A stretch of 64,000 bases of DNA from an uncultured Nitrospira sp. GTDB taxonomy: Bacteria; Nitrospirota; Nitrospiria; Nitrospirales; Nitrospiraceae. Every line of letters starts with the position of its first letter. The first letter of the stretch is position 1. The stretch covers positions 19,754 to 83,753 of the forward strand of contig CAZXRB010000001.1 in the NCBI GenBank assembly GCA_964642845.1, read 5' to 3'. Of this stretch, positions 29,179-64,000 are shown one piece after another. The notes under the pieces are model-generated. The model saw only the letters and a program-made list of their open reading frames with translations. It did not search any database and had not been told where the DNA came from. The translations under genes were made by a program, and so were the position numbers.

Positions 29179-30186
29179 TCATACAGTCAGCGCCTGACGA
29201 AAATATTGGATCGTCTTCTGCAGGGCTTCCTCGATCGGCACCTTCGGCTCCCAGCCCAGCAGCGCCTTGGCGCGGGTAATGTCGGGCCGGCGCACCTTGG
29301 GATCGTCCACAGGGAGCGGATGGTGGCTGATCTGGCTTGCTGAGCCGGTCAGCCGGATCACGAGTTTCGCGATGTCCAACACGGTCCATTCGCTCGGGTT
29401 CCCGAGATTCACGGGATCGTGAATGCTGGGGGCTTGCTCACCCTGTTGAGTGAGGAACGTTTTCCGATCGGTTCGCTGTTCCACCGTCTTGTCCGAGGAC
29501 GTCATCAGCAGGGCGACGATGCCGCGGACGAGATCATCGACGTAACAAAAGCTCCGCGTCTGCAACCCGTTTCCAAAGACACTCAACGGTTTGCCCTGGA
29601 GGGCCTGCACGATGAAATTCGAGACCACGCGCCCGTCGTTCGGCCGCATGCGGGGACCAAACGTGTTGAAGATGCGGGCGATGCGCGTATCCAGGCCGTG
29701 ATACCGGTAATAGGCCATCGTCATGGCCTCGGCAAAACGCTTGGCTTCATCGTAGACGCCGCGGGGGCTGACCGGACTGACATTGCCCCAATAGGACTCC
29801 GGTTGCGGATTCACCAGCGGATCGCCGTAGACTTCCGACGTGCTGGCCAACAAAAATCGCGCGCCTTTCGCTTTGGCGAGCCCAAGGACCTTGTGAGTCC
29901 CGAGCCCGCCGACCTTCAACGTCGCGATGGGCATGTCGAGATAGTCTTGAGGGCTGGCCGGCGACGCAAAGTGCAAGACCGCGTCGAGGGGACCGTCGAT
30001 ATGAACGTAGTCGCAGACGTTGTACTTGATGAACGAAAAGCCGTCCCGGCCGAGAAGGTGTGCAATATTCTCGACTTTTCCGGTGCAGAGGTTATCCATG
30101 CAGACCACGTGGTATCCCTGCGCGAGCAGGGATTCAGCCAAATGGCTTCCTAAAAACCCGGCCCCTCCTGTGATCAGCATCCGCAT
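29179..30186 (-). CDS. UDP-glucuronate decarboxylase (UDP-xylose synthase-like SDR)
   Basis: [47 protein letters not shown] and PVNLGNP match the UXS/ArnA-decarboxylase subfamily of extended SDRs. Confidence 0.85.
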
Positions 30187-30253
30187 GCATCGACCTCGCT
30201 CTGAAGAACGAGTCTAACACGAGGCGCAAGGCAAAACCGGCGGGATGTGGCGA

Positions 30254-30844
30254 TTATGGGGCGGGAGGCTGGGACAGGCTGCCGCTCGGCGACGGTGGCG
30301 GGCCTCCGCTATTCGAGAGCATTTGCCCGGATCCGCTGCCGGCTGGAGGCGAGGCGCCGGGCGTCGCCGGGCCGGTGAGGACCAGTCCGCTGGCGCTGGA
30401 AGGATTCGGATGTTGGAACACCCAATCGGCGTAGCTTGCGCGGCCCTCGAAATGGCGAACTTCAAGCGGGAAATTACGCTCTTTGATCGGCCGGTCTTTG
30501 CTTTTGCTCCGCACCCCCATGATCCCGCCGGTGGGGGCGCGGACGAGGTCCCAATCTCCGTGCCCCATTGGATCAGGATAGACTTTTCTGAGAAACGGCT
30601 TGGGAGGACGGGTCAGATCCGCGAGGGTGGCCGGATAGACCTCGCCTGGCATGACGCGGCCGGCCTTCATCGTGGCTGAATAGAGGGCCAGCGCGTTTTG
30701 AATCTCGATGCCTTTGGCCAATAAATCGGCCTCCAACTCTCGCTGCACCATCGTCTTCCACTGGCGTGCGGCCCCGGACATGGCGAGTCCCATGAGGACG
30801 ATCGCCACCATGAGCATGACGTAGGTAAAACCGCGTTCGTTCAT
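30254..30844 (-). CDS. Prepilin-type N-terminal domain protein (pseudopilin) with Ser/Pro/Gly-rich C-terminal tail
   Basis: MNERG/FTYVMLMVAIVLMGLA is a class III signal-peptide-like leader plus hydrophobic helix, with Met rather than Glu at +5. The C-terminus is PNPSSASGLVLTGPATPGASPPAGSGSGQMLSNSGGPPPSPSGSLSQPPAP. Start set at ATG 30844. Confidence 0.7.
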   Translation of the reverse strand: MNERGFTYVMLMVAIVLMGLAMSGAARQWKTMVQRELEADLLAKGIEIQNALALYSATMKAGRVMPGEVYPATLADLTRPPKPFLRKVYPDPMGHGDWDLVRAPTGGIMGVRSKSKDRPIKERNFPLEVRHFEGRASYADWVFQHPNPSSASGLVLTGPATPGASPPAGSGSGQMLSNSGGPPPSPSGSLSQPPAP

Positions 30845-30911
30845 GGGTCGGCGGACGGCTGCTGCGCCCATGGGCAGTCTCCACTGCGCGTACGTGCTTA
30901 TAGGAGTCCTC

Positions 30912-62025: not shown

Positions 62026-62051
62026 CGCGTCCTATCCTCGTTCGCCCGGGG

Positions 62052-63260
62052 TCATGCCTTGCCGTCGACGGCCTTCACCGTCCGCCCGTATCCATTGAAC
62101 GGGCCCGGCTGATGAAGAGTCGCCACGAGAGCGTCGTACAAGTCCTCGATGCGACGCAGCCGATTGGAAAAGGAAAATTCGGCTTCGATTCGCCGACGGC
62201 CGGCTTGCCGGAGCCGGGTTCGCAACGCCGGGTCCTCGACGATTCTCAGCAGCGCCGCGGCCAGCCCGTCGGCGTCGCCCAAGGGCAGGACATAGCCGGT
62301 CTCCCCGTCCTTGACCAATTCCTTGGCTCCGGCCACGTCGGTCGTTACGACGGGTAGTCCCATGGCCATCGCTTCAAGAATACAGTTGGGCAGCCCCTCC
62401 CGTCGCGAGCTCAACATGAAGACATCAAACGCCGCGTACACCGCCTGGAGATTCGACCGGTATCCGGGAAACATCACCTGGCGCTCGATGCCGAGCTCTC
62501 GCGCCACCCGTTCTAGTTCGGTGCGTGTGTCGTCTCCCCGCCCATCGCCGACCAGGACGCACCTCGCCGCCGGGTGTTTGCGCGCCACCACGGCGAAGGC
62601 CTTCAGCCAGGTGGACAAATCCTTCTCGCGATTGATCCGGCCGACATACCCGACGACGGGAAAGGCGCCGCCGAGTCCCAACTCCCGGCGGAAACTGTCC
62701 GTTCCCTGCTCCGGCGACCAGGCCGACGTGTCGATGGCGTTGTGAATGACGGTGACGCGCTCGGCCGGCACACCGCCGGCCACCATCTCGGTCTTCGTAG
62801 CATGAGAGACCGCAATGAGATGATCCAAGCGCCGCATAATCGCCAAATCGAGACGCCGATACAGTTCCCCCTTGAGGCCCAGCAACACCCACGCGTGCGC
62901 CGTCGAAAGGAGACGGACCGGATGCGGGCACATCCACCGCCCGAAGAGATAGGCAAACACATCGCTCTTGTAATCGTGCGAGTGGATGATGTTGATCTTG
63001 TGCCGCAACACGATGTCGCGAAGTGCCCGCAGGACCTGCAAGTCAAATTTTCCCCGCTCCGGGATCTCGTAGTAGGTCAATCCCTTGGCGCGGGCCTTGT
63101 CCGTGATTTGAAACTCGTGGTCCCGCACGTCCCGGATGTAGGCCACGACGGGCGTTACGCGCGACTGGTCGTGCTGCTCGGCGGACAGCAAGATGGTCTT
63201 GTCCGGTCCTCCGCCCCACTTGTATGTGTTGCGGAGTTCTAGCAGGCGCACGTCAGGCAT
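62052..63260 (-). CDS. Glycosyltransferase family 4
   Basis: EX7E region SSRREGLPNCILEAMAMGLPVVTTDVAGAKELV, with N-domain WGGGPDKTIL. Start at ATG 63260 or 63272. The longer track ORF overlaps the upstream gene. Confidence 0.85.
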   Translation of the reverse strand: MPDVRLLELRNTYKWGGGPDKTILLSAEQHDQSRVTPVVAYIRDVRDHEFQITDKARAKGLTYYEIPERGKFDLQVLRALRDIVLRHKINIIHSHDYKSDVFAYLFGRWMCPHPVRLLSTAHAWVLLGLKGELYRRLDLAIMRRLDHLIAVSHATKTEMVAGGVPAERVTVIHNAIDTSAWSPEQGTDSFRRELGLGGAFPVVGYVGRINREKDLSTWLKAFAVVARKHPAARCVLVGDGRGDDTRTELERVARELGIERQVMFPGYRSNLQAVYAAFDVFMLSSRREGLPNCILEAMAMGLPVVTTDVAGAKELVKDGETGYVLPLGDADGLAAALLRIVEDPALRTRLRQAGRRRIEAEFSFSNRLRRIEDLYDALVATLHQPGPFNGYGRTVKAVDGKA

Positions 63261-64000
63261 GATCCCTCTCATCGACTGTAGCCCCCTTCCAGACGGCACG
63301 CACCGACTGAAGAACGCGCTGCATAGAGTCCCGGAGCCGATACAGTTCATGGAACTGAGTCTTGAACGGCCGCGGTGTGCCAAAGTCGTACGACCCCGCC
63401 GGGGCCGGCGCGACATCGTTGGGATACCGGCAGCAGTAGCTGTAGACATAGGCGTTGGTCATGAGGAGGACCAAGGGCCTGGTCAGGGTGTGGGTCGTGA
63501 ACGACTGTAGGTCTTCAACGGACCGCCGGAAAAAGAAATCGGCTTTCGCGCGGAAGAGAGCGCGCTGCTCCTCGACAGCATGTTTGGCGGCGGCACAAAA
63601 GACATTGGCCTTCCGCATGTCCTGTGCGGGCCAGGTTTCGGTAGGAATCAGGACCCGATGCAGCACCTCCATATACGGTACTTCATGGTCCGCCATCCAG
63701 GATGCGTAATGGAGAAGGCTGGCTCGGGCGTAAGCGTACATCTCATCCAATTCACCGCGTTCGCTTTTCACGTCCAGGTATTTCCCGAGGACCTGGAGAA
63801 AGACCGTGTAGGACCAACGATATTCGACATCGTCGAGGTTGCGGAGCGCGATGTTGTCCTGCGGATGGATACAGCGCTTGATCAGCGACTCGGCTTTGGT
63901 GAGGTATCTTTGCTCACCGGTGAGGCTCCACCCGTCCAGCAGCACGCTGATGGAATTGCCGCTGCCCCGTCCGGGGCCGTGGTAACCCGGCGTGGCCGTC
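63253..64000 (-). CDS. Hypothetical protein, 5' end outside the window
   Basis: I checked codon by codon that the frame stays open from the track start (63945, a GTG) to base 63999 (...TATPGYHGPGRGSGNSISVLLDGW...). So this is the C-terminal part of a larger protein, helix-rich, with no family recognised. Confidence 0.5.
   Translation of the reverse strand, partial: TATPGYHGPGRGSGNSISVLLDGWSLTGEQRYLTKAESLIKRCIHPQDNIALRNLDDVEYRWSYTVFLQVLGKYLDVKSERGELDEMYAYARASLLHYASWMADHEVPYMEVLHRVLIPTETWPAQDMRKANVFCAAAKHAVEEQRALFRAKADFFFRRSVEDLQSFTTHTLTRPLVLLMTNAYVYSYCCRYPNDVAPAPAGSYDFGTPRPFKTQFHELYRLRDSMQRVLQSVRAVWKGATVDERDHA

Follow-up and report, generated by a model that had tools for sequence, protein, structure and literature searches.

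We have studied a stretch of 64,000 nucleotides (hereafter the window) from an uncultured Nitrospira species, and in particular its part 29179–64000. There a machine made of a secretin and type IV filament components lies beside genes for nucleotide-sugar and exopolysaccharide (EPS) synthesis, and beside a gene for a secreted protein with BACON and FN3 domains. The original prediction had presented the whole as an undescribed system. Judged by its sequence, the machine is instead the Nitrospira version of a described, if barely characterised, family, the Pul/OxpG atypical type II secretion systems (T2SS); it is orthologous, component by component, to the Pul-type cluster of Geobacter metallireducens. 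Nor does the result alone extend what type IV filament systems do, as had been expected. The region as a whole we interpret, with about an even chance of being right, as composite: a Pul-type protein-secretion operon (approximately 45594–29179, minus strand) with nucleotide-sugar genes, abutting a variable EPS island. The BACON/FN3 protein is the prime cargo candidate.

In wastewater plants, drinking-water filters and soils, the main nitrite oxidisers and the complete ammonia oxidisers belong to Nitrospira. These bacteria grow as dense microcolonies in a self-made matrix, the molecular basis of which is, to our knowledge, essentially unknown. A module found in nearly every Nitrospira genome offers concrete candidates for matrix assembly and aggregation. 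It also links Nitrospira to the widespread Pul/OxpG family, with an unusual fusion of tetratricopeptide repeats (TPR), secretin and cohesin. A literature search found no published description of this system in Nitrospira; one paper treats the generic type IV pilus repertoire of one strain.

Gene content was checked with Pfam and NCBIfam, and every gene that the original prediction had listed in 29179–64000 is present where it was placed. The comparison set consists of 80 Nitrospira/Nitrospiraceae loci from GTDB species representatives, with up to 10 kb on either side of the secretin gene, and one further genome. All window proteins were run by tblastn against the comparison loci; the denominators given below are the loci which reach the position concerned. 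For the variable flank we surveyed, in 27 loci, the open reading frames (ORFs) on the upstream side of the module by a bulk Pfam scan and clustering, and representatives were annotated.

The machine and its relatives

The genes of the machine and the nucleotide-sugar genes associated with it are the following, in the order of transcription:

44299–45594, minus strand: TviB-like UDP-N-acetylhexosamine (UDP-HexNAc) 6-dehydrogenase (NCBIfam TviB 469 bits, cutoff 592)
41816–44146, minus strand: secretin, an outer-membrane lipoprotein of 776 amino acids (aa) with TPR, STN/N0, one Secretin_N and Secretin domains (Pfam)
41313–41819, minus strand: pseudopilin of 168 aa, class III signal G/VTLLE (N_methyl); overlaps the secretin stop by 4 nt
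40940–41338, minus strand: GspG-like pseudopilin of 132 aa, signal G/FTLVE (N_methyl and T2SSG; TIGR01710 64 bits, below cutoff)
40227–40946, minus strand: coiled-coil lipoprotein with a C-terminal LysM domain (Pfam LysM)
38986–40200, minus strand: GspF/PilC inner-membrane platform (T2SSF twice; GspF 310 bits, cutoff 424)
37215–38942, minus strand: PilB-like assembly ATPase with N-terminal MshEN and a tetracysteine motif (Pfam)
36220–37209, minus strand: PilM-like actin-fold protein (no Pfam match; orthologue profile)
35600–36217, minus strand: PilN-like bitopic protein (Pfam PilN; present in 62/62 loci)
35031–35597, minus strand: PilO/GspM-like bitopic protein (Pfam PilO; NCBIfam GspM C-terminus)
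34450–35034, minus strand: protein of 194 aa with an N-terminal hydrophobic segment, in the PilP/GspC position (present in 61/61 loci)
30912–34352, minus strand: rmlB-rmlD-rmlA-rmlC, dTDP-L-rhamnose synthesis (Pfam), inserted between the 194-aa gene and the tailed pilin
30254–30844, minus strand: third pilin-like protein, signal ERG/FTYVM without Glu5, with a Pro/Ser/Gly-rich C-terminal tail (present in 57/57 loci)
29179–30186, minus strand: UXS (UDP-glucuronate decarboxylase) family short-chain dehydrogenase/reductase (SDR), the last gene of the block

In PMC3543383 (citing Mehta et al. 2006), the part which deals with the Pul system of Geobacteraceae describes it as an atypical T2SS required for the secretion of OmpB, a multicopper protein. 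The same part names the pseudopilins PulG, OxpG and TklG and places the pul genes near cell-division genes. The locus of G. metallireducens RCH3 (L088) has genes for F, E (with MshEN), M, N, O, the P-position protein, the secretin and two pilins, and then ftsE, ftsX and an M23 peptidase. Since its components and neighbours match this description, we place the machine in the Pul family; L088 is provisionally equated with the studied OxpG cluster by the description (cell-division neighbours and component set). The Nitrospira secretin is 30% identical to the RCH3 protein over residues 18–599, from the TPR through the secretin domain (E = 1e-90). The other components have 25–54% identity to those of L088 by tblastn, with GspE (54%) and PilN (25%) at the two ends. 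The 132-aa pseudopilin is 52% identical to a Geobacter Pul pseudopilin, the platform 40% to its homologue, the 168-aa pseudopilin 38% to a 171-aa protein which follows the secretin there, and the PilM-like protein 28% to the PilM_2 gene; a profile of 15 PilM-like orthologues also matches M. xanthus PilM (E = 1.6e-6). The 194-aa protein has a weak similarity to the gene in the same Geobacter position.

The five distant loci which we examined share a common machine of F, E (MshEN), M, N, O, P-position protein, secretin and two pilins, often with a third. In the outgroup loci L084, L086 and L087 the two pseudopilin genes are followed by one for a homologue of the tailed pilin, with 30–35% identity. 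Nitrospira and Pul thus agree in the TPR-secretin, the two adjacent pseudopilins plus a third, the MshEN ATPase, the F platform, the PilM/N/O-like proteins and the P-position protein. Gene order is kept within sub-blocks, and elsewhere in the family Pfam finds a Cohesin domain at the end of the secretin. They differ in that the secretin-pilin block precedes the F-E-M-N-O-P block in Nitrospira, which also has an inserted LysM lipoprotein, the dehydrogenase as first gene and often UXS as last. Nitrospira has in addition an adjacent BACON/FN3 gene and an EPS-type rather than a cell-division neighbourhood, and no OmpB-like multicopper oxidase was seen in the window. The LysM protein, found in 70 of 72 loci, is a probable peptidoglycan anchor of the machine; a LysM gene occupies the equivalent position in outgroup L085. 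The outgroup machines (Geobacter, a metagenome-assembled genome of Nitrosomonadales and others) have unrelated neighbours, without EPS genes beside them. In L086 and L088 (1–3900) a GT2 glycosyltransferase, a 353-aa protein and two multihaem cytochromes precede the Pul cluster in the same order; the 353-aa protein is NHL-repeat-like in L086 and has no Pfam match in L088. These genes may be cargo or partners of the Geobacter-type clusters.

None of the machine components reaches the curated score for the canonical T2SS, type IVa pilus (T4aP) or mannose-sensitive haemagglutinin (MSHA) pilus equivalogs. With the canonical Gsp T2SS the locus shares a secretin, an E ATPase, an F platform, a GspG-like pseudopilin and a Sec-dependent secreted protein encoded alongside. 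It differs by the absence of GspC and GspL, by three pseudopilins instead of five and by one secretin N domain instead of N1–N3; PilM/N/O-like proteins take the place of GspC/GspL/GspM. The scores are 156 bits for GspD (cutoff 351), 517 for GspE (630), 310 for GspF (424) and 64 for GspG (89). The likeness to T4aP is found in the ATPase, with PilB of Geobacter and Myxococcus as nearest PDB entries, in the PilM/N/O homologues and in the TPR module, which resembles a pilotin (PilF/PilW/Tgl). However, every component is below the T4aP cutoffs (PilB 563 of 676 bits, PilQ 130 of 284). The locus is without a PilA-type major pilin or a PilY1/minor-pilin set, and Pfam and NCBIfam found in it no PilT-type retraction ATPase, PilY1-type adhesin or AMIN domain. 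As to MSHA, an MshEN domain is present (Pfam, 56 bits), and the MshL model gives the secretin 94 bits against a cutoff of 250. Control by cyclic di-GMP (c-di-GMP) through this domain is possible; the model of the c-di-GMP motif gives 34 bits, just short of its cutoff of 38. The ATPase probably starts at Met33 of its ORF, which extends to 39038.

The TPR region of the secretin is a pilotin-like module fused to it, and its lipobox Cys28 is invariant. Homologues among Nitrospira proteins are 83–99% identical, with 83% for N. moscoviensis and 99% for a metagenomic protein; these identities mark the window as Nitrospira and rule against Geobacter, which the order of the housekeeping genes had at first suggested. 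The C-terminal part consists of a low-complexity linker and a cohesin-like beta-sandwich of about 130 aa. In the window secretin itself, Pfam recognises no domain over the final 130 residues. We modelled this C-terminus with AlphaFold (AF2) from 18 Nitrospira sequences; the model is an all-beta sandwich with a pLDDT of 74, and cohesin modules make up its top 15 PDB matches, with E = 3e-4 to 2e-3 and TM 0.43–0.52. Pfam also calls Cohesin (PF00963) in secretins which are 30–35% identical, from the Nitrosomonadales genome, from Geobacter and from other deltaproteobacterial lineages. For these two reasons the name cohesin, already used in the original prediction, probably stands at the level of fold and family; no Pfam Dockerin match was found among the scanned proteins. 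When 1.8 billion cluster representatives were searched exhaustively, 897 secretin homologues were obtained at E < 1e-30. Many of them align from the TPR through the secretin domain, some also through the C-terminal domain. The TPR-secretin, with or without cohesin, is a widespread architecture, with hundreds of clusters at 50% identity.

Successive machine genes overlap by 4–7 nt (41816–41819, 40940–40946, 36217–36220, 35597–35600 and 35031–35034), as would be expected if their translation is coupled. A scan for terminators and promoters gave fewer matches than in shuffled sequences, and no intergenic terminator within the operon. The machine operon probably begins with the dehydrogenase gene. 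As had been noted before, this gene ends 152 nt short of the secretin start; in 41 loci the two genes are co-oriented and about 150 nt apart.

The conserved module and the variable flank

Each machine gene is present in 97–100% of the Nitrospira loci; the 168-aa pseudopilin is found in 81 of 81, and the third pilin has a low-complexity tail, 15–83 aa long, in all its orthologues. The UDP-HexNAc dehydrogenase adjoins the machine in 51 of 54 loci, the BACON/FN3 gene is next to it in 33 of 34, and a UXS gene is found in 20 of 51. The claim of a physical tie between the machine, glycan genes and the BACON/FN3 protein is therefore borne out. It had also been asked whether the machine is always linked to rhamnose, UXS and EPS genes in relatives, and this is not the case: rml genes are rare, UXS is found in the minority just mentioned and the EPS operon of the window is syntenic in one of 32 relatives. 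From these counts the conserved unit is the BACON/FN3 gene, the dehydrogenase and the eleven-gene machine, with or without UXS, and not the whole 35 kb.

The dehydrogenase scores above the cutoff with the NDP-sugar dehydrogenase subfamily (384 bits), and its nearest PDB entries are UDP-ManNAcA dehydrogenase and Cap5O. The assignment of UXS is clear from 365 bits to human UXS1, against at most 133 bits for other SDRs. The gene after the tailed pilin is UXS in about 40% of the 51 loci and proA in 29 of them. The rmlBDAC genes are missing from the position they have in the window in all 57 loci which reach it. In L038 (6334–9700) they are placed between the dehydrogenase and the secretin; since the two positions are different, the operon must have captured rml at least twice. 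There is no glycosyltransferase in the conserved module, so that the use of the locally made sugar is something we infer.

The features on the other side of the dehydrogenase are the following:

46137–46151, plus strand: sigma-54-type −24/−12 element AGGCAC-N5-TTGC, 80 nt upstream of the BACON/FN3 gene
46231–48264, plus strand: BACON/FN3 secreted repeat protein, with four BACON_2 and a C-terminal fn3 domain (Pfam); choice-of-anchor D
48408–48422, plus strand: exact sigma-54 consensus TGGCAC-N5-TTGC, 150 nt upstream of the PL14-like gene
48573–49748, plus strand: secreted PL14-like protein, a weak assignment (Pfam 37 bits, partial), outside the conserved module
49961–64000 and past the window end, minus strand: EPS-tailoring operon, variable, related to XrtA/PEP-CTERM loci

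The BACON/FN3 gene and the dehydrogenase are found in two arrangements, in 41 and 6 loci, and they are neighbours in both, so their linkage outlives rearrangement. A single inversion would relate the two arrangements. In the six inverted loci the BACON gene lies between the dehydrogenase and the secretin, and it is co-oriented with the latter. The protein has a signal peptide followed by a Ser/Thr/Pro/Ala-rich region, and no anchor. Its orthologues vary from about 370 to about 910 aa because of a different number of BACON repeats, and the fn3 domain is their most conserved part (median identity 65%). All orthologues (L001–L082) share the C-terminus ...GNES.YSNEVSKS[IV][FY], which ends with an aromatic residue; this conserved sequence could be a recognition or anchoring signal. 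A search for PEP-CTERM tails found none on the BACON/FN3 protein or on any ORF of the window. The term glycan-binding, applied to it earlier, is a label only, and lyase-like is equally a label for the PL14-like protein.

Both secreted-protein genes had been predicted to follow sigma-54 elements, and these are indeed present. At least 31 of 50 relatives have the motif nGGCAC-N5-TTGC in the 400 nt that precede their BACON orthologue. Over the whole window the number of sigma-54 motifs is not above chance; for this reason the support for a promoter comes from its conserved position across relatives. A histidine kinase and a sigma-54 response regulator are encoded beside the module in five Nitrospira loci and in outgroup L086, and a sigma-54 activator probably regulates the module. 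L011 (1291–5511) has four tandem BACON-like paralogues in the flank and L012 (876–5589) has two YVTN beta-propeller proteins of 734 aa; they may be additional secreted proteins associated with the machine. In outgroup L087 an Ig-repeat protein of 1084 aa is encoded directly upstream of the machine, in a position equivalent to that of BACON/FN3.

The PL14-like gene has a homologue in L037 only, among the comparison loci. Over 48000–50000, around this gene, the GC content falls to 0.543, and the gene has an atypical codon usage. It looks like a recent acquisition which brought its own exact sigma-54 promoter.

The EPS operon consists of genes for GDSL, Wzy_C, GT4, a carbamoyltransferase, an unknown protein, DUF5989, a second carbamoyltransferase, GDSL, AsnB, GT4 and a GH127-like protein. 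Its part 53641–58999 brings together two NodU-like carbamoyltransferases, a small DUF5989 membrane protein and two GDSL esterases. The presence of carbamoyltransferases and GDSL esterases in one operon suggests that the product is an O-carbamoylated and O-acylated polysaccharide, an unusual chemistry for an EPS locus. The GH127-like gene (63253–64000, minus strand) runs past the window end and belongs to a widespread uncharacterised family; its best homologue, 80% identical, lies on a 1.7-kb contig. The order GH127-like, GT4, AsnB recurs, with a 65% homologue, on a distant metagenomic contig of 41 kb (L083, 10001–14232). Three XrtA-associated families are matched below their equivalog cutoffs: the amidotransferase TIGR03108 (674 of 817 bits), the GT4 protein TIGR03088 (285 of 409) and the O-ligase-like TIGR03097 (136 of 188). 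We found no exosortase, PrsK/PrsR/PrsT or PEP-CTERM protein within the window, and the Wzy_C protein is the only part of a Wzx/Wzy pathway in it.

These EPS-tailoring genes are found in 0–2 of 32 relatives, with synteny in L037 only. Other EPS genes of the XrtA/PEP-CTERM type are present on the variable flank in about 15 of 27 relatives, so that in roughly half of the genus the module borders a variable matrix island of this type. The earlier view that nearly everything in the 35 kb serves one theme is thus partly supported by the EPS-type flanks of these relatives, but the conserved unit is smaller. In 8 of the 27 flanks there is a 772-aa Wzc-like fusion of chain-length determinant and tyrosine kinase, related to TIGR03007 and TIGR03018; the same loci have a priming glycosylphosphotransferase for EPS, to which a CapD/PseB-like dehydratase is either fused or adjacent. 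PrsT is above its curated cutoff in the flank of L035, and L052 has a 761-aa cluster-mate of it, assigned by similarity alone. Matches to the XrtA-type AsnB were obtained in L008 (NCBIfam) and L078 (tblastn with the window protein), and in L052 and L059 genes for canonical PEP-CTERM proteins lie no more than 10 kb away.

In about seven loci the flank genes are unrelated ones (proB/nadD/rsfS/bioB, ClpB, aspS, transposases). In the complete Nitrospira genome L001, transposase genes lie on both sides of the module (1575–2329 and 21702–22271) and housekeeping genes replace the EPS island.

The secretin had been put forward as the only outer-membrane conduit. In the window this holds, since no called gene matches an outer-membrane polysaccharide export (OPX; Poly_export), Wzx-type or ABC-transporter family. 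Yet the EPS operon continues past 64000, so that this negative result says little beyond the window. The eight relatives carry the Wzc-like polysaccharide co-polymerase (PCP) and the priming transferase directly beside the module, for which reason classical export genes very probably exist outside the window. No OPX was seen in the stretches which we examined.

Proposed protein secretion and the other explanations

The locus has a full inner-membrane platform, an ATPase and an alignment set; its secretin brings a TPR lipoprotein module of its own, and three proteins have class III signals. In the reading which we prefer, the ATPase would assemble a short pseudopilus that expels folded periplasmic proteins through the secretin, as in a T2SS. 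The cargo would be the Sec-exported BACON/FN3 protein, transcribed from its own sigma-54 promoter, which would probably join the extracellular matrix around the microcolonies. We regard it as the best candidate because it has a signal peptide without an anchor, an almost universal adjacency to the machine, a conserved fn3 domain and a parallel in the Ig-repeat protein of the outgroup. A glycan containing HexNAc-uronate, xylose or rhamnose may be made alongside the machine and could decorate the cargo, the Pro/Ser pilin tail or the matrix polymer; this link, suggested by the sugar genes, is the weakest step of the mechanism. The EPS polymer itself would most likely take a classical Wzy/PCP/OPX route, with its genes outside the window, and the EPS island happens to lie beside the module here.

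Several observations weigh against this reading. What connects BACON/FN3 with the machine as its cargo is adjacency, and the outgroup Pul-type loci L084, L085 and L088 have neither a BACON nor a dehydrogenase gene. Two components have no match to known families: the 194-aa protein with Pfam, NCBIfam and PDB profiles, and the tailed pilin with Pfam and NCBIfam (best PDB profile insignificant, E = 0.15). There is no prepilin peptidase in the locus. The ATPase is closer to the PilB of T4aP than to GspE and the alignment subcomplex is PilMNO-like, from which it is possible that a surface fibre is built instead of a pseudopilus. Sugar genes are repeatedly embedded in the operon (dehydrogenase first, UXS last, rml twice), and they count against a pure protein-secretion model, which needs none. 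Of the two functions originally proposed, secretion with BACON/FN3 as cargo is nevertheless better supported than polymer export, though it is a function which we infer.

A rather unlikely alternative is that the machine builds an adhesive surface fibre like T4aP or MSHA, possibly O-glycosylated on the Pro/Ser-tailed pilin, which drives aggregation, with BACON/FN3 as a separate matrix component. The ATPase speaks for it (PilB 563 bits against 517 for GspE, and T4aP PilB as nearest structures), together with PilM, PilN and PilO, a secretin with N0 and N1 only, as in pilus secretins, the tail on every third pilin and the sugar genes inside the operon. The MshEN domain is also present and might switch the fibre on by c-di-GMP, although the motif model remains below its cutoff. 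However, there are only three pilin-like genes, the best conserved of them is GspG-like, and PilT, a PilY1-type adhesin and secretin AMIN domains are absent from the locus. Moreover, the part of PMC3543383 on the Pul system, the sole homologous system studied experimentally, describes it as a secretion system. It is quite improbable that the secretin is the exit for an exopolysaccharide or slime-like polymer, with the pseudopilus or the cohesin-like domain helping to extrude or tether it. Such export would not be without precedent, as had been supposed: cyanobacteria and Myxococcus need PilQ/GspD secretins to secrete slime (PMC12475490). The Nitrospira machine resembles them by a secretin of the PilQ/GspD family associated with exopolymer production. 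It differs in that the slime link is experimental and concerns canonical PilQ/GspD, whereas the one in Nitrospira is known from gene adjacency alone and relatives have PCP genes. The sugar-nucleotide genes which open and close the operon in many genomes, the two rml insertions, the EPS genes abutting the module in about 15 of 27 relatives and the lack of OPX, Wzx or ABC exporter matches in the window agree with polymer export. Against it, the Wzc-like PCP and priming transferase of relatives imply a classical pathway, and the negative exporter search is limited to a window past which the operon continues. The outgroup machines sit among unrelated genes, and the conserved module has no glycosyltransferase or synthase.

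XrtA/PEP-CTERM is an exopolysaccharide-protein sorting system, with PEP-CTERM genes as single-gene units and an unknown outer-membrane route (Haft et al., PMC1569441). That the machine is this missing step for PEP-CTERM proteins processed by XrtA, as the T2SS is for GlyGly-CTERM and MYXO-CTERM proteins, which depend on it (PMC11980579), we consider very doubtful. The published XrtA gene set includes no filament machine. Nevertheless the AsnB, GT4 and Wzy_C families of the window are related to it, and the flanks of relatives contain PrsT (L035, and the cluster-mate of L052 assigned by similarity), TIGR03007/03018-like PCP genes, TIGR03108-like AsnB genes and PEP-CTERM proteins (L052, L059). 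The BACON and PL14-like genes are single units behind long intergenic regions with sigma-54 promoters, which is the layout of PEP-CTERM genes (PMC1569441). On the other hand no ORF of the window, BACON/FN3 included, has a PEP-CTERM tail, there is no exosortase gene, the XrtA-associated families are all below cutoff and the Geobacter Pul-type loci are not beside an XrtA locus. With the recurrent XrtA/PEP-CTERM neighbourhood, Pul-type machines as an outer-membrane route for exosortase substrates become testable. A broader possibility, improbable too, is that the Pul-type machine is the dedicated outer-membrane exit of the Nitrospira matrix programme, for possibly glycosylated BACON/FN3, perhaps for PEP-CTERM proteins or a glycan carrier, with the cohesin-like domain tethering the product at the pore. 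If so, the long-missing outer-membrane step of PEP-CTERM/EPS sorting would be identified. It is also unlikely that we are dealing with envelope genes of unrelated function (machine, sugar genes, EPS island) juxtaposed in a recombination-prone region. This would suit the highly variable flank past the BACON gene (EPS, two-component, housekeeping and transposase genes), the lower GC content of the EPS part (0.54–0.59, against 0.62–0.64 in the machine) and the unrelated neighbours of the outgroup machines. However, the dehydrogenase (51/54) and BACON/FN3 (33/34) stay adjacent over about 35% protein divergence and in both arrangements, the dehydrogenase keeps its orientation and its gap of about 150 nt to the secretin in 41 loci, and UXS or rml lie within the operon boundaries in several lineages. 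Even if the neighbours are merely neighbours, the comparison provides a useful re-annotation of genes which at present go under 'general secretion pathway protein D' or 'hypothetical'.

Other genes of the window

The rest of the window, which has a GC content of about 62%, contains the following features:

1–24000: housekeeping genes (plsY, kdsD, kdsA, pyrG, kdsB, lepB, lepA, carAB, greA, pyrBC, pyrR)
27769–29079: proA, which directly precedes the block in coordinates

No riboswitch or other RNA was found by Rfam within the window. Between pyrR and proA there are a gene of the FGE-sulfatase (formylglycine-generating-enzyme) family and two conserved hypothetical genes, which code for 230 and 591 aa (24235–25176, plus strand, and 25249–27768, minus strand). 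A homologue of the 591-aa protein is located after proA in L019.

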